Below, piece after piece: positions 794 through 7,966 of a DNA stretch of 19,866 nucleotides. The notes beneath the pieces are model-generated. The model did not search any database. It was given only the letters and a program-made list of their open reading frames with translations, and was not told where the DNA came from. This stretch comes from a virus (taxonomy: Duplodnaviria; Heunggongvirae; Uroviricota; Caudoviricetes), in IMG/VR virus record IMGVR_UViG_2579778613_000002, positions 1-19,866 of that record, one strand, 5' to 3'. Each line of letters starts with the position of its first letter. Position 1 is the first letter of the stretch. The position numbers and the translations under genes are program-made.

Positions 794-866
794 GTCGTTA
801 ATTCCTATGCGTGGTTTTACGATACCGAAGCCCTGACTGTTACCGCAGTTGGGGCTTCAACTTTCT
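794..866 (+). ncRNA. sar: sar-like small antisense RNA (about 70 nt) complementary to the ant start codon and RBS region
   Basis: Plus-strand promoter-like elements: -35 TTGATA (759-764), 17-bp spacer, -10 TATACT (782-787), predicted start near 794. Hairpin at 827-858 (GAAGCCC / GGGCTTC stem extended by ACTG/CAGT, hexaloop TTACCG) followed by a U-rich run AACTTTCTGCTCT. P22 has an antisense sar RNA of similar size at the equivalent position. Confidence 0.45.
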
Positions 867-1060
867 GCTCTATCAGTTATATCTTTCCCTTCATATACTT
901 CACCTATATTGCTAATGCTGGCAGAACATCCAAGATGCTTGTATCTTATGATGTCCAACACGCAGTCACTACACAGCATCCGACCTGTTTCTTTAGAGTA
1001 AATGTATGTTTGATCAGCGTCTGATTCGCTAATGCCGCAGAAACAACATTCTTTACTCAT
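857..1060 (-). CDS. Small Cys-rich protein (67 aa) with two CxxC motifs, putative zinc ribbon; function unknown
   Basis: ORF-track ORF. Its ATG (1060-1058) overlaps the arc stop in an ATGA arrangement, indicating translational coupling. CxxC pairs at C5/C8 and C30/C33 with a further Cys at 44. A GAGGGG SD-like element lies upstream inside arc. Confidence 0.6.
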   Translation of the reverse strand: MSKECCFCGISESDADQTYIYSKETGRMLCSDCVLDIIRYKHLGCSASISNIGEVYEGKDITDRAES

Positions 1061-1197
1061 ACCGTTATCCCCTCTCTCTTCAGGCTGTCCATCACCCGTT
1101 TAATTACTTCTGCACTAAATGAGCGACACTCTTCCTTTGCTTTCTCTTCAAGGATTTTTTCTAACTTCTCTGGCATACGCAGTGTTTTTACCTTCAT
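1057..1197 (-). CDS. arc: Arc-like ribbon-helix-helix repressor (46 aa)
   Basis: Below the ORF-track size cut-off; found by hand translation from ATG 1197-1195: MKVKTLRMPEKLEKILEEKAKEECRSFSAEVIKRVMDSLKREGITV, ending TGA 1059-1057. Pattern (beta-strand RMP, two helices, ...RVMDSLKREG) resembles P22 Arc. SD GGAGGA is 4 nt upstream of the ATG. Confidence 0.7.
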   Translation of the reverse strand: MKVKTLRMPEKLEKILEEKAKEECRSFSAEVIKRVMDSLKREGITV

Positions 1198-1302: not shown

Positions 1303-1554
1303 ATGTCTGATCGTAAGTACAAAAACCCTCAAGTGAATCTGAGGCTTCCTGTAGAGATAAAGGAACGTCTTATTGAACTGGCTGAGGCTAATTCTCGTTC
1401 ATTAAATGCTGAGATGGTCGCAGCACTTGAAGCATGGACCGAAAAAAACAAACACATTCAAGCACTAGATCTTGCAACTATAGCATCGCGACTGATAGAG
1501 CTTGAGCATGATGTTGAGAAGTTAAAATGTATGCATGGCAATGGTGAAAAATGA
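1303..1554 (+). CDS. mnt: Mnt-like ribbon-helix-helix repressor (83 aa)
   Basis: ORF-track ORF. N-terminus ...NLRLPVEIKERLIELAEANSRSLNAEMVAALEAW has the RHH pattern of P22 Mnt (FNFRMPMEVREKLKFRAEANGRSMNSE...). C-terminal part looks coiled-coil like Mnt. Divergent from arc; SD AGGA at 1292-1295. Confidence 0.75.
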   Translation: MSDRKYKNPQVNLRLPVEIKERLIELAEANSRSLNAEMVAALEAWTEKNKHIQALDLATIASRLIELEHDVEKLKCMHGNGEK

Positions 1555-1868
1555 AACGTATCGCTATCCTATTGCTCCTGTGTCTCTCGAGCATAGCTAA
1601 CGCAGAAACAAAATCAGACGATAGCAGTTTTGATGAAATACAAGGCCTCATGATAGCTTCTAAAATGGCTGGTATGTGTGGTGCAATCAAACAAATGGCA
1701 ATATTCCAAGAATCTACAAACATGCCAGGTGGGAATGAATTCTTACAGAGATTCCTTACTACAGAGCAAGCAAGGCTCGGGATGACTCCGCAGCAATTTC
1801 TTGAAGCATGTCAGAAATCAATCTCTATTTATACCACCTATTACAATATGAGCTCTGAGAAAAAATAG
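1551..1868 (+). CDS. Predicted secreted (periplasmic) protein with cleavable signal peptide (105 aa); function unknown
   Basis: ORF-track ORF. Its ATG overlaps the mnt stop (ATGA), indicating translational coupling. N-terminus MKRIAILLLLCLSSIANA-ETK is a typical Sec signal peptide with an AXA cleavage site. Mature part has two Cys. Confidence 0.6.
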   Translation: MKRIAILLLLCLSSIANAETKSDDSSFDEIQGLMIASKMAGMCGAIKQMAIFQESTNMPGGNEFLQRFLTTEQARLGMTPQQFLEACQKSISIYTTYYNMSSEKK

Positions 1869-1877
1869 ACTAGGATT

Positions 1878-2063
1878 TCAACGGCTTCCGCGTCCCTGAG
1901 TAATTCTGTTGCGGATTTGCTTCTTGCGGTGGTTTAAGCTGGATAGCTTGGCTTCTGCTTCTGATATTTGCGCATCTAGATCTTTAAGCTCAAGATCTGA
2001 AAGTCGCTGGTCAAGCAGGGTTTGATTCAACTCAATGTTGTTCAAACGTTCTTCTATGGTCAT
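1878..2063 (-). CDS. Small charged coiled-coil protein (61 aa); function unknown
   Basis: ORF-track ORF. Strong SD AAGGAG is 5-6 nt upstream of the ATG (ATAAGGAGTAATC-ATG). Sequence is heptad-like and highly charged. Lies immediately downstream of the terminator at 2077-2105. Confidence 0.55.
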   Translation of the reverse strand: MTIEERLNNIELNQTLLDQRLSDLELKDLDAQISEAEAKLSSLNHRKKQIRNRITQGRGSR

Positions 2064-2076
2064 GATTACTCCTTAT

Positions 2077-2105
2077 AAAAAACCCACCTGACGGTGGGTT
2101 TCATT
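2077..2105 (-). terminator. Rho-independent terminator (bidirectional hairpin) downstream of the lipoprotein gene
   Basis: Plus strand reads AAAAAA-CCCACC-TGAC-GGTGGG-TTTCATTTC (stem 2083-2088 / 2093-2098). On the minus strand the hairpin is followed by UUUUUUAU; on the plus strand by UUUCAUUUCUU. Confidence 0.65.
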
Positions 2106-2107
2106 TC

Positions 2108-2539
2108 TTAATCTTGCTTTGTGGACGGTATAAGGGATGCGTTTGCCTCTTTTGGCTTCAAGGTATACATCCCACCATTAAATGGATCAACAGCAAGCCA
2201 ACCAATTAACCCACCAAACACAAGGTTTCCACCAATATACCAACCATTAGCATTGGCTTTGATTGGCAGGGTAACTGGTTCATACCCATCCTTCTCCATA
2301 GTGATCTGGTAGTTCTTTTTGCCAAAATAGCTACCATCTGACTTGGCGAGCGTTACACCTTGTGGGGTCCTACCTTGCGCAACAATCACACCTGACTCAT
2401 CTTTTACCTTAAAGCTCGCGCCAGAAGGATTGCTGTTCACTTGCACAAGTTGCGTTTCATCACCAACAATAGTTGCGCACCCAGATAACATCATAGCGCC
2501 AGCAACGACGCCAATAATCCTCTTCATATCAATTTCCAT
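2108..2539 (-). CDS. Predicted lipoprotein (PEGA-like beta region plus glycine-zipper hydrophobic segment); candidate moron/superinfection-exclusion protein
   Basis: ORF-track ORF. Signal peptide with lipobox: MKRIIGVVAGAMMLSG-C. The true start is probably the ATG at 2527 (MKRIIG...). Middle region (VQVNSNPSGASFKVKDESG...GRTPQGV...KDGYEPV) fits the PEGA-type pattern; C-terminal GWYIGGNLVFGGLIGWLAV is a glycine-zipper-like hydrophobic stretch. Own terminator downstream. Confidence 0.65.
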   Translation of the reverse strand: MEIDMKRIIGVVAGAMMLSGCATIVGDETQLVQVNSNPSGASFKVKDESGVIVAQGRTPQGVTLAKSDGSYFGKKNYQITMEKDGYEPVTLPIKANANGWYIGGNLVFGGLIGWLAVDPFNGGMYTLKPKEANASLIPSTKQD

Positions 2540-2644
2540 ATTTAAAAAACCGGAAACATCCTAATGACAAACCATTCAAATGTGAAGTAGGCAAAAGATG
2601 TTTACTTTTTTCATGGTATCCTGCTCAAAACTAAGGAGGTTGGT

Positions 2645-2833
2645 GTGAAGAAAAAATTTGTAAACGTTGCAAAGTGCGCAATTTTTATATTTTTTATGAC
2701 CTTTTACGGATTTAGTGCCGGAGAAGGTTTCGATCGTGATGCCAATGCATTCAGTTTCTTTTGTCTGTCTATAGTGGTCATAATTGTATGGGTGGAATTA
2801 AAGCAAACATTGTTTCATGTGCTAAGGAAATAA
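2645..2833 (+). CDS. Small hydrophobic membrane protein (62 aa, two predicted TM helices); function unknown
   Basis: ORF-track ORF with GTG start preceded by a strong SD AAGGAGGT (2633-2640). Two hydrophobic stretches (AIFIFFMTFYGF and FFCLSIVVIIVWV). Visibly AT-rich. Convergent with gp16; no convincing promoter found. Confidence 0.5.
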   Translation: MKKKFVNVAKCAIFIFFMTFYGFSAGEGFDRDANAFSFFCLSIVVIIVWVELKQTLFHVLRK

Positions 2834-2850
2834 CCATCCATGGCATTTAG

Positions 2851-4692
2851 TCACTGCTGTGTTGCCTCAGTGGCAAGCAGCGGTCTGATGGCATTTGCAG
2901 CGTTACTTAATGCTCTTTCATAGGCTGGCGTTCCTGCTTTGGTGTTTGCCAGACGTAAGAGCGCATTCCTTGCTGCTTTGGACTCATACAAGCGCATCAT
3001 TGCACCGAAACCAGCCTCAAGCCCCATTGATACGCCAAGAGTCGCAGTTGCGCCAATCGTCCTTATCCTGTTGGCTTGCGATTGCCCCGTCTGAGTTACT
3101 ACATTTGCGGTGTCTGACCTTGCTGTTTGCTGTAGAACTTCATGAAGAGCATCAAGCTCTTTCATGTGCTTTCCAGAAAAAATAGTGTTGTAAATTTCAC
3201 CACCTGACTGAGATTTCAGCTTATTAACTTCAGTGATGAACTTGGCTGGAGAGTCACCGGCCTTTTCCGCTATTTTGCTGACGTAAGCTGCACGCATAGC
3301 ATCTTTCCCTTTATCATCCAGTGCGCTCCAGATTCGTTTCACGTCAGATGGTTTTCTGCTTAATACAACGGTATTTATAAGTTCAGGACTGGCTTCACTG
3401 CTTGCCTTGTTGAGCTTGTTGGCAATGTTTTTATTAAGCACCTTATTATAAACGTTTGCATAATCGGAATTTGCTTTAAGGTATTTTGCTGCGTCTGATG
3501 CACCGAGGTTTTTAGCAACTGCGTTACGAAGGTCTTTTGACATTGCATTCTCTACCATATTGGTAGCTGCTTTTGCCTGGTTGGGGAAGACCATAGCATC
3601 TCCCTGAACATTAGATCTAAATGCTGTTCTGTGCTGACGCAAGAGATCAAACGTAACATCCAAATCAGTTGCAGGGTTTGCTAATTCTTCACGTAGGTTA
3701 CGCAAGGATGTAAGCAGGCTTTGATTGGCAGACGTCCCAAGCCGTTCCTGTCTTGCGATCGCTGTATTCAGAGCATTCATGGTATTTGTGGTATCAACTG
3801 CGGCATTACCCATTTTATTGGTGACGTCATTGATAACAGCGCCAGCGGCATCCTTCCGCCCCCTTAACGTGGTGGTAAGAGATTTCACCACATCATCAGG
3901 GTTGTACTCACCAAAACGGTCAAAATAATTGCTTACCAGCTTACTACGCGTTGCATATTGCTCAGCTCGCTTTGAGCCTGTCCCGAGCAAAGCCCCCTCA
4001 GCATCCTGAGTAAGTCCGCGAGTGAAAGCATTTTTCGGCGGGATAACATCAGATGTCATTGGTGTCACGCCCATCGATTCTGATGTGGCAATTTTCTTCG
4101 CCACTTCTGGCGCAATATCACCTTTTATAGCCGTTATTCCACGCCCTATTCCCTTTGCTGCTGCGGAAAGAACACCCTGAGCGGCAAGGTTAACTCCGGC
4201 ATTTTTAGCTGCATTTTGTGCGAAATCGCCTTTCTGATTTGCGGCCTCTGCCAGTGATCCAATAGCCATGCTTCCTGCCGTTCCAACTCCTGGAACTAAA
4301 TACCCGCCAATTGTTTCTCCAGCTTGCGCATAAGGGTCTGTCGGTCGCTCGACAGGGCGATAAACATCATCCAAAACCTTGGGGCCGCCAAGCCCCTGGC
4401 TGATTGCATTAATCAGACTTGCGCCACCCTGCAATACGTCAAATGGTATGTTTACCAGACCACGACCAGCCTGTTCTGCAATTTGCCCTGCACTTTTACC
4501 ACCTGTGAGCCAATCACCAGCTTGTTGCATCAATGATGGTTCTTCCCGTGTTGGTGCATTATTGGCCTGATTAACTGTTTGTTGCTGAACAGCCTGACCA
4601 GCAAAATACTCATCAATGGCGGTGCCAATATCTTCGGTGCTCGTACCATCAGGAAAGGTAAATGTCTTACCGTTTGCAGTTACTTTCATCAT
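2851..4692 (-). CDS. gp16: Ejection (DNA transfer) protein, P22 gp16 homolog (613 aa)
   Basis: ORF-track ORF. Size and position (last gene of the late operon, after gp20) match P22 gene 16. Gly/Ala/Gln-rich composition typical of ejection proteins. Start overlaps the gp20 stop. Confidence 0.8.
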
Positions 4693-6104
4693 TCCACCGT
4701 AAATTGAATGCCTGATTTTGAGGTATATGACCCAACCTGATTCCGTGGTTCTCCTGAAGGTGTCGAATCTTGTGCTGGCGCTGCGTCAGTATTCATTGAC
4801 ATATACCGCTTAACGGCACTCCCCAATGATTCACCTTTTTTAACATCCAACCCCAATATCTGACCGCCATTACGCGATTGTCCTGGATTGCCATTCGCGC
4901 TCATCCACTCGGCTTTAAACTCATTAAACTGCGCGTTTCGTCGCTCAAGGTTTGCCATCGCATCAAGCCATCTTGCGACCGTCTCAGGGTTATCCATGTC
5001 AGTTGGTGCACCCTGCCGAACGATCTCAACGTCTTTATCCGTTGCGGGGCCGGGAGGTAGGAATTTAAGAACCTGACTGTTAACAAGGGCATTTTGGCGG
5101 ATGCGCAAATCACGCAATGTTGTATCGCTTCCGGTAAGTTTTGCGAACATGTTCTGTGCGTTACCGAACAAACCTGTCGTTGGTTTTTCTGCTCTGAACT
5201 GTTGAGCAAGCGCACTCATGGAATTGGCTGAGTTTGATGATGCTGTAGCATTGTTTACAGCCGTCTCGATGCCTTTTTCCATGTTTACTGACAGCTTAGG
5301 TGCTTCGCTAATCAACTGCTGAGCCTTTTCCTGTGCTTGCTGCATCTTAAACCCGAACTCTTGCTGATCCAGAGCCAAGCGTTGTGCTGCGATATTGTGT
5401 CCAGTCATTGCTGACTGATAGGAAAGGTTTTGCCCTCTCGCCTGAAGTGCTTCTCCAGCCTGATTGCTGCGGATTGTCTCTGCAAGTTTGCCTCGGTCAA
5501 TTTCACGACCAGCCATCTTGTCCTGAACAGCAAACGCCTTTTCTGGTCCAAGCGCACCGAGAGACATAGTAGTCAACATGTGTGATAGCTGCTCTGGATT
5601 ATGGATACCTGTCTGAATCATCCAGTCAGCATTCGCCCCCACGCGATTTAACCTGTCCTTGTTGTCAGTAATGAATTTACTGTAGGCTTCCGGTCCCTGA
5701 GAAAGAGCGACGTTAGCCCTTATGGCTAAATCGCCCATATCGTTGCGTTGCTGATCATTAAGACCGGAAAACGCCTGTTGTGCCTGTGCAACAAACGCTG
5801 GATTTTCCTGGGCAAACTTAAATAGTCCCGATGGATCACCAGAAGCCCATGCATCAGCGTGAACCTTATTGAACGCACTAATCGCTTTCTGTTGCTGTTC
5901 CTGATTGTAAATATCAGCAACTCCAGCCAGACCACGTAACGCGGTCAGACCAACGTTATTTGCACCTGAGCGAGCCAGTTCATTGTTTTCGCGGATCAGA
6001 CCAAGCGTTGCGTTAATGTCGCTTGCCTTTGGCGCATTCTCATTTTGCGTACCGATGCCAGCCAGAAAACCACCAGAATTAATACCCTGTTGCCACGTAG
6101 CCAT
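4689..6104 (-). CDS. gp20: Ejection protein, P22 gp20 homolog (471 aa)
   Basis: ORF-track ORF. Length and position between gp7 and gp16 match P22 gene 20. Confidence 0.8.
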
Positions 6105-6114
6105 TGATTACTCC

Positions 6115-6807
6115 TTAAAACAACGAGCCAAGCAGACCAAGACCGCCGCCGATCGCAGCCCCCCACGGAGTTGATGAACCAATTAATTTCGCAAGTCCGG
6201 CCCCAGCAATAGCACCAGACGCACCTCCGCCAATAGCAGATTGCATTGCTGATGGTCTGTTGGCATTTGCCGCTGCAAGAGCCGCACTTTGCTGCGAAAT
6301 CTGACTCATGTTGTTGGCATATGTCTGCCCGGCGTTTGCCTGACCTTGCAGTGCGCCAAGACCAATATTTGCCAGATTCTGGTAGTTGTTCATCTGACCA
6401 GATAGCCATTGCTGACCAAGCGTTGGTGCGATTGTTGCTAACTGATTACTGGTTGCGGTGGAACCCAATCCACCTGTTGCTTCCGCTGCCGCCAGACTCT
6501 GATAGCGAGCCTGACCAGCAAGATCTTTGTACTGCTGAGAGTTGTAATACTGGTTAAGCGCCTGACCTTGCCCCTCCAGAGACGATAAGTTTTCGAGGCT
6601 TCCGACATACTTATCAGCCAGAGGAGTAAACGGCTTCAGGTTGTTCATGATGGTGTTGAACTGCTGATTTTGCAGGTCTGCTGCATACTTCTGAGCTTCT
6701 GCGGCATACTTTGCGCTTTTATCAGAACTGCCACCTTTCCCACCCTTTTCAGGGCAATAAGGTTCCTCGCCGCGCAGTTTTCTGCCCAGCTTAAATGCAT
6801 ATAACAT
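6115..6807 (-). CDS. gp7: Ejection protein, P22 gp7 homolog (230 aa)
   Basis: ORF-track ORF. N-terminus MLYAFKLGRKLRGEEPYCPEKGGKGGSSDK... and the Gly-rich C-terminal tail match P22 gp7 as I recall it (229 aa). Confidence 0.8.
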   Translation of the reverse strand: MLYAFKLGRKLRGEEPYCPEKGGKGGSSDKSAKYAAEAQKYAADLQNQQFNTIMNNLKPFTPLADKYVGSLENLSSLEGQGQALNQYYNSQQYKDLAGQARYQSLAAAEATGGLGSTATSNQLATIAPTLGQQWLSGQMNNYQNLANIGLGALQGQANAGQTYANNMSQISQQSAALAAANANRPSAMQSAIGGGASGAIAGAGLAKLIGSSTPWGAAIGGGLGLLGSLF

Positions 6808-6809
6808 GG

Positions 6810-7265
6810 CTATCTCCCGTGATTCAGGAAGTCGATTAGTTCTTCGCGTGTGGCGCTGTAAAAAGTCACGTCATCCACGCCTTTAAAGTATTTCTTGATG
6901 GTTCCTACACGCTTAAGGCCAATCATTGCGCAGTACATCTGCCCGTGGCGGAATTTGCGTGCAGCGAACGATGTGACGCACTGAACGGTGGTGTTAGTCA
7001 GAATGTATCGCCAGAACGCCATCCCGATTTCCTTGCTGAATCCGCGAATCTCTGGCAGGTACATGGCGTGGCAATCAAAGGTCAAAGGCTGAATCTCCTG
7101 ATAGTAAACAATTCCGCCGAACTGCCCGTGCACGTTCACCTCAAAGTAACGGCAATCAGGTTTGTAGTCGTATCCATCACCGTTGTTGCTCCCGGCGATA
7201 ATGTCAGGGTGATTTCCGACTGCTTCGATCAGGTCAATGTTTCGCGTTGGTTTGAATGTAATCAT
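6810..7265 (-). CDS. Gene-14-position protein (151 aa); putative head/ejection-protein assembly factor
   Basis: ORF-track ORF located between the tail-needle gene and gp7, where P22 has gene 14. Assigned by synteny and size only; I do not recall the sequence well enough to confirm homology. Confidence 0.5.
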   Translation of the reverse strand: MITFKPTRNIDLIEAVGNHPDIIAGSNNGDGYDYKPDCRYFEVNVHGQFGGIVYYQEIQPLTFDCHAMYLPEIRGFSKEIGMAFWRYILTNTTVQCVTSFAARKFRHGQMYCAMIGLKRVGTIKKYFKGVDDVTFYSATREELIDFLNHGR

Positions 7266-7966
7266 CAGTCAATCAGCCCATGTAATCTAAGTGCCGTTTC
7301 AAGCGCCAGAATACGCTGCCGCGCCTGCTGCAAACCTGTAGCGAGAGATGCGACTTCGGATTGTGTGTACGTAGTGCCGACAGTGTATGACTGGTTAGCG
7401 TTGAATGAGCCAAGAAGTGGCGTACCTGTGGCTGCTGTCCACCCTGTCTGACGAGCACCAATAACCTTGGTGCCGCCGACCGAATAGGATGTTGTTACAT
7501 TGAGGGGAGATGCCAGCGATTGTGTTGCAGTGGCTGTTTTCGATACATAGTCGTCCTGTAATGCAGAAATGTTGCTCTCAGCAGTCGTAACCCGGCCATC
7601 AAGAGCGCTGACGTCAGCCTGTAAAGTGACTATTTCTCCTTCAGCCGTGGTTAGTCTGACATCCAGCTCTGCAATTGCCGCAGTATTCGCAGCAATACGG
7701 ATTTCATGGTCATCTACTTCAATGCGGAGCTGACGAATTCTTTCTTCGTGATCGACCAGAATCACATCCTGCTCATCGTTCCTGACTTGTGCGTCATAAG
7801 CGCCCTGTCCGGCCTCGTTGGCCTTGTTCGCCACGTTACCAACATCAGTACCCTGTGCGATAACGTAAAGCAGATATGACTGCGAGAAGATATTGCGTGG
7901 AAGGATTGATGTATCGAGCTGCGTCGCCTGAACAATAACAGGTGTATTGAGATTCGAATCAGCCAT
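7265..7966 (-). CDS. gp26: Tail needle protein, P22 gp26 homolog (233 aa)
   Basis: ORF-track ORF. N-terminus [43 protein letters not shown] and the central coiled-coil region (RVTTAEGEI...[17 protein letters not shown]) match P22 gp26; same length. Confidence 0.85.

Follow-up and report, generated by a model that had tools for sequence, protein, structure and literature searches.

Two genes in the ant moron of a P22-like prophage are likely to be independent mosaic modules joined by a reusable terminator element

Morons, in the sense of Hendrix and Juhala, are independent transcription units inserted in a phage operon. Cor of phi80 and N15 and Llp of T5 are small phage-encoded outer-membrane lipoproteins that block the FhuA receptor. 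In P22, sieA lies between gene 16 and mnt, on the strand opposite to gene 16. P22-like phages carry an 'ant moron' that separates gene 16 from the tailspike gene (Villafane et al. 2008, PMC2629481); for gene 15 of epsilon34, the same paper listed no matches other than bacterial genes without a known function. In HK97, gp15 is a superinfection-exclusion moron (Cumby et al. 2012, as cited in PMC10883804).

We analysed two genes in a window of 19,866 nucleotides, the whole of the viral DNA under study (IMG/VR record IMGVR_UViG_2579778613_000002). Both lie at 1878-2539 on the minus strand, in the sense of the late operon. A first-pass annotation had interpreted them as a two-gene accessory cassette, and the elements that it described (a lipoprotein gene, a hairpin with a U6 run, a Shine-Dalgarno (SD) sequence and a small open reading frame) were all found in their places on that strand. 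The features of the locus are as follows.

1303..1868, plus strand: convergent mnt operon, consisting of the gene for the Arc-family protein Mnt (1303..1554) and orf105 (1551..1868)
1878..2063, minus strand: orf61, a 61-aa acidic/basic single-helix protein of the coiled-coil type (phrog_7586)
2061..2098, minus strand: 38-nt portable junction made up of hairpin core, U-run, AAGGAG, spacer and ATG (exact-match scan)
2077..2101, minus strand: intrinsic terminator with a 9-bp stem, GTCA loop and U6 run, annotated as rho-independent in epsilon34 and Emek
2108..2527, minus strand: lipoprotein gene, 139 aa, reading frame formally open from 2539 (phrog_6823, E=8e-85)
2558..2586, minus strand: sigma-70-type promoter of the lipoprotein moron (promoter scan)
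2614..2647, plus strand: 34-bp conserved leader (AAGGAGG and GTG) of a divergent small gene, a recurrent junction
2645..2833, plus strand: orf62, a small two-segment hydrophobic protein (phrog_21338), divergent from the lipoprotein gene

The slot has the position of P22 sieA and carries accessory DNA, and to this extent its earlier designation as a sieA-equivalent locus was appropriate; the equivalence does not extend to orientation, as sieA is opposite-stranded relative to the lipoprotein arrangement. Syntenic relatives contain a YafO pair, a Panacea pair, P63C, HicA or the lipoprotein at this slot, or have it empty, which is the presence/absence pattern of a moron. We consider it likely that 1878-2539 consists of two independent mosaic modules in the hypervariable ant moron of a P22-like (Lederbergvirus) prophage, joined by a reusable terminator element. 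The first module (2586..2077) has the classic form of a moron, a single gene standing between a sigma-70 promoter of its own and an intrinsic terminator. The second is orf61, encoding a separate conserved small coiled-coil cytoplasmic protein of P22-like ant morons. Gene 15 of epsilon34 encodes the same lipoprotein at the same location (96% amino acid identity to gp15). In its promoter-gene-terminator build, its presence/absence pattern and its expression from the prophage, the lipoprotein module agrees with the ant moron kind, and nothing essential differs. Beyond the 2008 paper, the present data show the epsilon34 gp15 family recurring as a moron in several phage types, and fix the exact boundaries of the module.

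On the upstream side, orf62 together with the end of gp16 was 100% identical in phage JEP4, and orf62 is a neighbouring module outside the moron. The same 34-bp leader stands before different divergent genes in Emek, L016, L017, L018 and epsilon34, and is the second mosaic junction to recur at the borders of the cargo slot. On the other side, orf105 encodes a signal-peptide protein and overlaps mnt by ATGA. The block of mnt, orf105 and orf61 moves as one unit, with approximately 99% identity, in several E. coli genomes. From the geometry of the locus, mnt-operon transcripts run antisense through orf61 up to the hairpin. P22 orf59a was considered as an equivalent of orf61 and rejected; it lies on the mnt strand downstream of mnt, and its positional counterpart is therefore orf105.

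The distribution of the two genes was determined in 5,426 complete E. coli genomes. The lipoprotein gene was present in 124 and orf61 in 130, and the adjacent pair was found in 18, a number for which the chance expectation has a rough denominator. E. coli LR-24 (NZ_AP027494) is a lysogen with exactly the arrangement of the window. Approximately 85% of E. coli carriers of either gene had no partner gene. None of the deposited phage genomes contained both: epsilon34, Gally and 720R6 have the lipoprotein only, and Emek, Kapi1 and S.Kent have orf61 only. In viral contigs, orf61 followed the lipoprotein at 2 of the 9 lipoprotein sites with the 38-nt element, equal to the background of 9 in 41. Homologues of the lipoprotein were also located in E. 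coli and Proteus prophages, where tail chaperone T and the tape measure gene flank them; others lay between gpI and gpJ, near Q/Bro-N in Actinobacillus, and in ordinary non-phage chromosomal loci of Enterobacter, Kosakonia and Leclercia. In none of these other phage slots or chromosomal loci did orf61 lie beside the lipoprotein homologue. These counts contradict the proposed two-gene cassette, and conservation of the pair as a unit, which had been suggested as a check, was not seen above background co-occurrence.

The hairpin (5'-AAACCCACC GTCA GGTGGGTTT-3', 2101..2080) is GC-rich and begins 6 nt past the lipoprotein stop codon. The U6 run occupies 2082..2077, its first three U residues being the last three bases of the stem, and is followed by AT, AAGGAG (2074..2069), five nucleotides and the ATG of orf61 (2063..2061). 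The RNA of this region folds with -18.7 kcal/mol (z = -3.8), and 0 of 200 shuffled sequences folded as well. It thus has the GC-rich stem-loop and U-tract of an intrinsic terminator, the 6-bp GC core leaving a minus-strand tail of UUUUUUAU. The terminator scan flagged the plus strand only, since the stem is extended through A/U pairs. As the hairpin is nearly symmetric, it is terminator-like on the plus strand too, and in that direction it would end the convergent mnt operon. On the minus strand it would provide insulation, blocking cargo transcription in the prophage from running antisense through mnt into arc-ant, as P22 biology suggests. A minimum free energy structure pairing the lipoprotein stop region with the orf61 start across the hairpin was discounted; its upstream partner is cargo-specific and is not conserved.

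The 38-nt element was found by exact-match scanning of IMG/VR at 41 sites in 40 viral contigs, downstream of at least five unrelated genes: the PEGA lipoprotein (9 sites), a Panacea-partner gene (8), the YafO toxin (7), P63C (7), lambdoid tail gene L (5) and HicA (1). It is common to many P22-like and some lambdoid prophages, whatever the upstream gene, and approximately 100 E. coli genomes contain it with neither the lipoprotein gene nor orf61. At 32 of the 41 sites there is no orf61, and the ATG merely starts a reading frame antisense to a ClpP-like gene. Because the element and its ATG are kept at these sites, conservation of the element is independent of orf61. The fusion of terminator and ribosome binding site had been taken for an attenuator that sets the ratio of this particular pair of proteins, an interpretation that does not survive its occurrence behind YafO, the Panacea-associated gene, P63C, HicA and tail gene L. 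The element and the 34-bp leader probably serve as short homology linkers through which unrelated cargo is exchanged at the slot, and they may be dedicated linkers for cargo exchange across phage families.

These data bear directly on the possibility that the lipoprotein gene and orf61 form one operon, in which a leaky attenuator fixes a low ratio of orf61 to lipoprotein and the products act jointly as an envelope exclusion or defence pair. The layout is what such an operon would show: the genes are on the same strand, 44 nt apart, the SD sequence is 2 nt past the U-run, and orf61 is without its own promoter, so that its expression in a lysogen would need read-through. However, each gene occurs alone in most of its carriers, co-occurrence behind the hairpin is at background, the identical hairpin-SD-ATG arrangement follows five unrelated genes, and the lipoprotein homologues of other phage types and of chromosomes never adjoin orf61. 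The two products are also predicted to reside in different cell compartments. The lipoprotein would be exported and lipid-anchored and orf61 has neither signal peptide nor membrane segment, so that a physical complex is topologically unlikely. Judged on gene distribution, the operon interpretation is largely refuted and we regard it as very improbable; a weak functional link between the two genes is formally conceivable, with the pair recurring in 18 E. coli genomes and 2 viral contigs.

The promoter of the lipoprotein module has the -35 hexamer TTCACA (2586..2581), a 17-nt spacer and the -10 hexamer TAGGAT (2563..2558). In three unrelated upstream contexts, the -35 hexamer was the exact point at which homology between copies of the module set in, and the hairpin was the point at which it stopped. 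In the Gally copy both hexamers and the 17-nt spacing are retained and the spacer sequence has diverged. A PhoP box looked for by eye in the promoter was rejected, its spacing being wrong. The module therefore has its own upstream promoter and its own downstream terminator, and its prophage expression is known from the Gally homologue. This gene, GALLYPH_14, is 97% identical and belongs to prophage Gally of E. coli LF82; it had log2 FPKM values of 9.4-11.0 in four of five conditions, compared with 3.6-4.1 for the adjacent upstream injection gene and 9.9-12 for the C2 repressor (PMC9928086, S1 Table). Its expression in this published RNA-seq (PMC9928086) was approximately 100-fold over that of the flanking late genes, LB overnight culture excepted. 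In LB overnight it was just approximately 3.3-fold over the prophage background, under the 5-fold cut-off used for morons, and it is for this reason that the authors, whose cut-off was LB-based, called Gally moron-free (PMC9928086). The lipoprotein gene is thus independently transcribed and active in the prophage at a time when the late genes are off, as shown in the 97%-identical homologue. The ratio of lipoprotein to tailspike RNA in Gally was also considered as a measure of terminator efficiency; it varied approximately 10-fold across conditions, which is not simple read-through, and this use of it was abandoned.

The product of orf61 is predicted to be one continuous helix (pLDDT 94). Just 42 clusters make up its family, each of them from Escherichia, Salmonella or Serratia. 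The gene is confined to the ant moron of P22-like phages, where it always has gp16 and mnt on either side and the orientation of the late operon. Values of dN/dS were 0.04-0.15, even at dS >1, with substitutions concentrated at third codon positions, and the frame and length of orf61 are kept in Serratia at 73% nucleotide identity. We conclude that orf61 is a genuine gene. That it is not a gene, and that its conservation reflects a non-coding role, for example as a 3' UTR or antisense target of the mnt operon, might be argued from its shortness, its convergence with that operon and its inconsistent annotation as a protein of 61 aa or as an 'XhlA family' protein of 89-92 aa. But the substitution pattern, the strong SD sequence at ideal spacing and the constancy of the frame in Serratia make this scarcely credible, and the long forms proved to be start-codon over-extensions at the N-terminus, into the divergent gene. 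Membership of the XhlA family (PF10779), the PGAP label of the long forms, was likewise rejected at 14 bits against a cut-off of 34.7. The likeness is restricted to a short N-terminal coiled-coil segment, and in contrast to XhlA orf61 has no C-terminal membrane segment and lies outside any lysis cassette. Matches of orf61 in PADLOC-DB were just coiled-coil noise (PbeC, E=7e-4; JetC, E=0.01).

The space upstream of orf61 is too short for a promoter of its own, and the gene can be reached only by read-through of the hairpin; in Kapi1 and one Serratia prophage orf61 has no upstream hairpin. Given the lack of promoter space, the upstream terminator and the convergent mnt transcription across the gene, orf61 is most likely silent in the lysogen and would be expressed when antiterminated late-operon polymerases read through. 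A different view is that orf61 is a generic hitch-hiker of the lysogenic state, the terminator-SD fusion being a low-level expression device through which any cargo promoter leaks. Purifying selection on orf61 is strong, and the element before it is kept without a single base change downstream of four or more different cargoes, as this view would have it. Against it, the same element, including the ATG, is present at the 32 sites lacking orf61, Kapi1 and the Serratia prophage have orf61 without the hairpin, and by the geometry of the locus mnt-operon transcription would oppose expression of orf61 in the lysogen. We consider it unlikely.

The lipoprotein had been assigned 143 residues. An open reading frame of this length exists (2539..2108), but translation almost certainly starts at the second ATG (2527, MKRIIG..., 139 aa), because all homologues begin there and phage Gally has no upstream ATG. 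The signal peptide ends in MKRIIGVVAGAMMLSG|C with the lipobox L-S-G-C, which conforms to the pattern used, [LVI][ASTVI][GAS]C, and the Cys (Cys17) is invariant in 30 of 30 homologues. The +2 residue is an invariant Ala. In E. coli, lipoproteins without Asp at +2 are sorted to the outer membrane by the Lol system. From its sequence the protein is thus expected to be processed by Sec, Lgt and LspA and, given the Ala at +2, to be delivered by Lol to the outer membrane, on its inner leaflet.

The PEGA model PF08308 matched the lipoprotein with 18.1 bits (E=0.0026), under the Pfam gathering cut-off of 20.8, and a precomputed match to PF08308 was present in just one of the homologues listed. The AF2 model contains a beta-sandwich at residues 25-93 with pLDDT >90. 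Its best Foldseek matches were to Cna-B/SpyCatcher-type and PEGA/CarboxypepD_reg-like sandwiches (E 1e-2 to 1e-3). The predicted sandwich may be of the kind of PEGA PF08308 (CarboxypepD_reg/transthyretin-like) and NCBIfam LEPBI_I2678; the protein has the K-x-G-Y-x-P motif, and PGAP names some copies 'peptidase associated/transthyretin-like domain-containing protein'. Unlike PEGA domains, the most conserved part of the family, NGWYIGGN...GG..G...VDP.NGGMY, lies outside every Pfam model. It forms an invariant Gly/aromatic hydrophobic segment, NGWYIGGNxxFGGLIGWLxVDPFNGGMY; N101, G105/G106 and D114 are invariant. The Gly-rich hydrophobic segment that had been described as a C-terminal glycine zipper is real, but it occupies residues 94-113 of 139 and is not C-terminal; in the AF2 model a conserved beta-hairpin comes after it (121-131, pLDDT ~90) and folds back against the sandwich. 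The segment is modelled with low confidence (pLDDT ~58) as a membrane 'foot', which probably dips into the membrane or drives oligomerisation.

Foldseek searches of the lipoprotein model against PDB and BFVD, one of the checks suggested earlier, returned generic beta-sandwiches only, and alignment profile searches with both proteins against PDB sequences gave only generic beta-sandwiches and leucine zippers. The lipoprotein matched no PADLOC-DB defence model. The literature on characterised PEGA lipoproteins and P22-like lipoprotein morons yielded nothing functional. The earlier statement that neither protein falls in a nameable family was thus borne out, Pfam, NCBIfam, PHROGs and PADLOC giving sub-threshold matches or families without function. 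The lipoprotein family is large (3,677 clusters at 50% identity, E<=1e-3). Assignment to a housekeeping family, which the first-pass annotation had named as evidence against its own proposal, is approached in part, in that non-phage chromosomal members exist. Among 17 long family members scanned for domain fusions, one distant homologue was fused to an OmpA-type barrel and there was no other fusion; a single case is too thin to serve as a clue to the target of the lipoprotein.

Acting alone on the envelope, the lipoprotein would work through a periplasmic PEGA-type beta-sandwich and the hydrophobic foot. P22 SieA, HK97 gp15 and the lipoprotein are alike as single, prophage-expressed envelope proteins (the location of the lipoprotein being predicted) encoded beside DNA-delivery genes, and homologues of the lipoprotein are found in exactly the position that gp15 has in HK97, with tail chaperone G/T and the tape measure on either side. 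HK97 gp15 (62 aa) and SieA, in contrast, reside in the inner membrane, lack a lipobox and have no sequence similarity to the lipoprotein. The lipoprotein resembles Cor and Llp as a small phage lipoprotein that would act alone at the outer membrane and is encoded among tail or late genes. Its mature domain, the PEGA sandwich and Gly-rich segment, differs from theirs, and no Cor homology was found in the mature lipoprotein, matches being limited to the signal peptide (NF047972, residues 5-33, E=0.11; phrog_1119, residues 5-24).

Superinfection exclusion by the predicted lipoprotein is plausible, and our best single guess, which is a tentative one, is that it interferes with DNA delivery by incoming phages. 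A role in host-envelope fitness is almost as likely. The lipoprotein would then be a lysogenic-conversion factor that tunes the envelope in host-like conditions, akin to lambda Bor or Lom and not directed against phages, and we regard this as a real though still doubtful possibility. Strong induction of the Gally gene in LF82 outside LB and in macrophages, approximately 10-60-fold relative to LB (PMC9928086), fits such a role, as do the very large family with non-phage chromosomal members and the fusion of one family member to an OmpA-type barrel. Deletion of the whole of Gally, however, left macrophage survival unchanged (PMC9928086). A role directed at phages is hinted at by the repeated occurrence of the gene beside those for DNA delivery (gp16, tape measure, gpJ), the HK97 gp15 slot being one such site, and other cargo found in place of the lipoprotein gene is of a toxin-antitoxin or defence-like nature. 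Interference with DNA delivery could be extended to the more speculative proposal, which we consider rather unlikely as a whole, that the PEGA-sandwich/Gly-foot lipoprotein (phrog_6823) represents a new and widespread class of prophage outer-membrane exclusion factors, switched on in host-like conditions and blocking DNA delivery by podo- and siphophages from the periplasmic face. Example targets would be an OmpA/OmpC-type secondary receptor or the nascent conduit of ejection proteins or tape measure. Such a function would account for unrelated temperate phages placing the lipoprotein beside their own DNA-delivery genes.

These results correct an attractive attenuator and operon model, and present the terminator-RBS fusion as a portable junction for cargo swaps in P22-like and some lambdoid prophages. 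The lipoprotein is a concrete target for testing, from a large uncharacterised family (>3,600 clusters at 50% identity) that has been captured repeatedly by different temperate phages. Inside macrophages, its transcription in the Crohn's-associated E. coli LF82 ranks with the highest of any gene of the dominant prophage. If it is an exclusion or envelope-fitness factor, this would provide an annotation for many of the 'hypothetical lipoproteins' of Enterobacterales prophages.

The window is a segment of a P22-like (Lederbergvirus) prophage or phage. The features framing the two genes under study are:

6807..6115, minus strand: gp7, ejection protein
6104..4689, minus strand: gp20, ejection protein
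4692..2851, minus strand: gp16-type DNA transfer protein
2645-2833, plus strand: orf62, a divergent small gene behind the 34-bp leader
2614-2647, plus strand: 34-bp leader (AAGGAGG and GTG), recurring before different divergent genes
1551-1868, plus strand: orf105, signal-peptide protein (phrog_19844, a family with no annotated function), with an ATGA overlap with mnt
1303..1554, plus strand: mnt, Arc-family
1197..1057, minus strand: arc
795..862, plus strand: sar antisense RNA (Rfam RF00262, 85.7 bits)
1-~860, minus strand: ant, running past the left window end

The immI region (sar, arc, mnt, ant) is complete, with ant cut by the left window edge, which is why the ORF list has no entry for this gene. 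With the gp16-type gene on one side and immI on the other, the lipoprotein gene and orf61 fall in the gene 16-to-tailspike interval, the "ant moron", which is in rapid genetic flux (PMC2629481). P22 has sieA and orf59a in this interval, on the other strand from its gene 16; both genes here, unlike P22 sieA, lie in late-operon sense.

All the sequence features in the first-pass annotation are present. Translation of minus-strand ORF 2539..2108 gives a lipobox, LSG/C, as described there. The true start is the second ATG (2527), giving 139 aa and not 143, since homologues all begin MK and the copy in Gally, a prophage of E. coli LF82, has no upstream ATG. A Gly-rich hydrophobic segment is present, but it is internal (residues 94-113) and not C-terminal, and is followed by a conserved beta-hairpin. 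The terminator described between the two genes was also found: the hairpin 5'-AAACCCACC-GTCA-GGTGGGTTT-3' lies at 2101..2080 (minus strand), six nt past the lipoprotein stop codon, and the first three U of its six-U run (2082..2077, minus strand) pair within the stem. The U-run is followed by AT, the SD AAGGAG (2074..2069), 5 nt and the ATG of a 61-codon ORF, orf61 (2063..1878). For the hairpin region the folding energy is -18.7 kcal/mol (z = -3.8), a value matched by 0 of 200 shuffles.

The two genes had been read as a unit, with the terminator-RBS fusion as an attenuator setting their ratio. Among deposited phages, epsilon34 (gp15), Gally and vB_EcoP-720R6 carry the lipoprotein gene and hairpin followed directly by the convergent mnt, without orf61, while Emek, Kapi1 and S.Kent 1-2-1 carry orf61 without the lipoprotein. 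In Emek the same hairpin stands 5' of orf61, but behind a Panacea/DUF4065 gene pair. A census of 5,426 complete E. coli genomes found the lipoprotein gene in 124, orf61 in 130 and the two side by side in 18; about 100 further genomes had the hairpin element without either gene. Independent assortment would give about 30 pairs, taking a rough denominator of ~540 neighbourhood-matching genomes, so that there is no enrichment. As a cleaner co-occurrence test, the exact 38-nt string of hairpin, SD and ATG was scanned for, yielding 41 sites on 40 IMG/VR viral contigs.

Gene immediately 5' of the 38-nt element (41 sites)
PEGA lipoprotein: 9
139-aa Panacea-partner gene: 8
YafO-family toxin: 7
P63C-domain protein: 7
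lambdoid tail gene L: 5
HicA toxin: 1
other: 4

orf61 lay 3' of the element at 9/41 sites overall and at 2/9 in the lipoprotein class (both 22%). The predicted compartments of the products also differ, the lipoprotein being exported and lipid-anchored and orf61 a soluble helix without signal or membrane segment. The lipoprotein and orf61 are independent of each other, and an attenuator tailored to the pair is not supported, the identical element standing behind several unrelated genes. The earlier interpretation is thus supported only in part: the region is accessory, and it holds a moron.

Because orf61 follows the lipoprotein at the overall rate and the upstream genes are varied, the terminator-RBS fusion is a portable junction and not a device specific to the pair. 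At the 32/41 sites without orf61, and at two other prophage loci (L016 3001-3042 and L018 3001-3046), the SD and ATG open an 85-aa ORF (MIYPSNNPPVCLIG...) that runs wholly antisense to the mnt operon's ClpP-like gene; this ORF is unlikely to be genuine, though its SD and ATG are kept to the base. The terminator scan flagged the hairpin on the plus strand, and in many prophages it lies a few nt past the ClpP-like gene stop codon. This near-symmetric hairpin would also end the convergent mnt operon, and in the lysogen would terminate the cargo transcripts. If it were missing, they would continue in antisense across orf105, mnt and then arc-ant and, from P22 immI biology, Ant antirepressor expression would threaten lysogeny.

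The 34-bp leader is kept before several unrelated divergent genes for small membrane or secreted proteins (orf62 here, an hkcB-like gene in epsilon34, others in loci L016-L018), which suggests that the cargo slot has a second linker for recombination; cargo may be exchanged through the short homologies of the leader and the 38-nt element. One viral contig (L061) has two hairpin copies, at 6663-6700 closing a YafO cassette and at 7887-7924 closing a HicA cassette, and a Salmonella prophage (L015) has two orf61 paralogues in one ant moron (5001-5177 and 6983-7168; 58 and 61 aa, ~76% nucleotide identity); cargo cassettes can thus be stacked in tandem. At ~6930-6980 in L015 a hairpin variant with its loop reverse-complemented (TGAC vs GTCA) lies farther from the orf61 SD, consistent with use of the near-palindromic element in either orientation. 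In E. coli ED1a-type lambdoid prophages (L004-L008; for example L005 10762-11900) a P22-type immI-like module, with Arc/Mnt, a ClpP-like gene and an adjoining Bro-N/P22_AR_C antirepressor, is inserted in the tail cluster after gpL with the same hairpin element at its boundary. These prophages also bear a PEGA-lipoprotein homologue at the T/tape-measure junction.

To define the lipoprotein unit, the upstream regions of 13 copies were aligned. Three contexts were seen, namely the 34-bp leader of the divergent gene, direct abutment to gp16, and that of Gally; in each of them the homology sets in precisely at the -35 hexamer, CTTCACA. The Gally copy keeps the -35, the -10 (TAAGAT vs TAGGAT in the window) and the 17-nt spacing with a changed spacer sequence. 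Downstream, homology ends at the hairpin. These alignments set the boundaries of a unit of ~510 bp comprising promoter, gene and terminator, a textbook moron.

Expression of this unit was examined in published RNA-seq data for GALLYPH_14, the 97%-identical copy in Gally (PMC9928086, S1 Table). Its log2 FPKM was 6.2/4.8 in LB overnight, 9.8-10.5 in conditions B1 and B6 (bacterial samples from neither LB nor macrophages, presumably grown in cell-culture medium), 11.0 in macrophages at 1 h and 9.4-9.5 at 6 h; the injection gene directly upstream gave 3.6-4.1 and the C2 repressor 9.9-12 (PMC9928086). These data support independent expression of the lipoprotein gene by the prophage, in a near-identical homologue. 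The authors report the five rightmost Gally genes as 6- to 40-fold up in macrophages, and classed Gally as moron-free because GALLYPH_14 in LB is only ~3.3-fold over background, under their 5-fold cut-off (PMC9928086). Within genes 13-17, mnt, tailspike, GALLYPH_17 and the divergent GALLYPH_13, co-induced with the lipoprotein gene, are all macrophage-induced, and the packaging and head genes remain silent. The lipoprotein/tailspike RNA ratio shifts ~10-fold between conditions (PMC9928086), so that plain read-through of the terminator fails to account for the pattern.

The lipoprotein family is phrog_6823, with no function on record, and comprises 3,677 clusters at 50% identity (E<=1e-3; 1,320 at E<=1e-10). 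Its best-kept part is not the PEGA-like sandwich but N-G-W-Y-I-G-G-N-x-x-F-G-G-L-I-G-W-L-x-V-D-P-F-N-G-G-M-Y, with many invariant positions and no Pfam model over it. The AF2 model (pLDDT 78) has a confident sandwich (25-93), a low-confidence hydrophobic helix (95-112) and a confident hairpin (121-131) that returns to the sandwich, placing both ends of the hydrophobic segment on one side; the segment would thus more likely act as a "foot" that dips into the membrane or drives oligomerisation than span the bilayer as an anchor. Foldseek and sequence searches against solved structures, as the first-pass annotation had proposed, gave only generic Ig-, Cna-B- or PEGA-like sandwiches. In E. coli the +2 residue governs Lol sorting, Ala directing lipoproteins to the outer membrane, and the invariant Ala at +2 here predicts that destination. 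One distant family member is fused to an OmpA-type barrel.

At eight other loci the gene stands alone, never beside orf61:

P0062, E. coli ED1a-type lambdoid prophages: between tail chaperone T and tape measure
P0072, Proteus lambdoid prophages: T/tape-measure slot
P0010, Pseudescherichia prophage: between gpI and gpJ
P0120, Actinobacillus: near antiterminator Q and Bro-N
P0030, Enterobacter: ordinary chromosomal locus
P0057, Kosakonia: ordinary chromosomal locus
P0091, Leclercia: ordinary chromosomal locus
P0042, metagenome-assembled contig: adjoining DinI/JAB prophage-remnant-like genes

This distribution points to a bacterial envelope lipoprotein captured repeatedly by temperate phages, usually beside DNA-delivery genes. 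The T/tape-measure site is also the slot of HK97 gp15, a superinfection-exclusion moron as cited in PMC10883804. Interference with incoming phage DNA delivery is tentatively favoured, short of being probable, because the sites adjoin DNA-delivery genes, including two slots known for exclusion genes, the alternative cargoes are toxin-antitoxin or defence-like, and the location is the envelope. Induction in host-like conditions and the chromosomal relatives speak instead for an envelope-fitness or conversion factor, a role almost as likely; some other function takes the remaining probability.

orf61 is a real gene by its substitution pattern. Close copies encode proteins 100% identical over 60/61 residues at 96-98% DNA identity, and in comparisons with copies at dS above 1 (from Serratia, and a second Salmonella paralogue) dN/dS is 0.09-0.15 and substitutions clearly favour third codon positions. 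The family (42 clusters at 90% identity) comes only from Escherichia, Salmonella and Serratia, and in every context examined lies in the ant moron between gp16 and mnt, in late-operon sense. orf61 is more often linked to the mnt side than to any cargo; a block of mnt, orf105 and orf61 recurs at ~99% identity in several genomes, with a breakpoint just before the hairpin. Annotations of orf61 as an 89-92-aa "hemolysin XhlA family" protein reflect over-extended starts, Pfam XhlA scoring 14 bits against a cut-off of 34.7. AF2 models orf61 as a single uninterrupted helix (pLDDT 94), which presumably forms a homo-oligomeric coiled coil, acidic over the N-terminal two-thirds and basic at the tail. 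The 2 nt between U-run and SD leave no room for a promoter. With the terminator upstream and convergent mnt transcription across it, orf61 would be off in the lysogen, and would come on once antiterminated late-operon polymerases cross the ant moron toward the tailspike gene, as they do in P22 (PMC2629481).

orf105 is presumably made with Mnt in the lysogen, since the ATGA overlap couples its translation to mnt, which makes it another candidate for a conversion or exclusion role; in other prophages its position is taken by a ClpP-like protease or orf77/orf69. Between arc and ant, a 67-aa Cys-rich ORF (857-1060, minus strand; CC-x-C ... C-x-x-C, zinc-ribbon-like) has no Pfam match; hypothetical genes occupy this position in LR-24 (73 aa), Emek (orf73), L016 and L018 (57 aa each).

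Both this kind of element and the variable locus that holds it were known before, and the lipoprotein gene was listed in 2008 as epsilon34 gene 15 (PMC2629481). Membership tests placed the lipoprotein with none of Cor/Llp, SieA, HK97 gp15, XhlA or any PADLOC family. New here are the exact boundaries of the lipoprotein module, a portable terminator-SD-ATG junction common to varied cargo types, even across phage families, and the recognition of the lipoprotein family as a recurrent, strongly expressed prophage moron. Together they offer a testable lipoprotein family and what appears to be a clean example of linker-mediated moron exchange.
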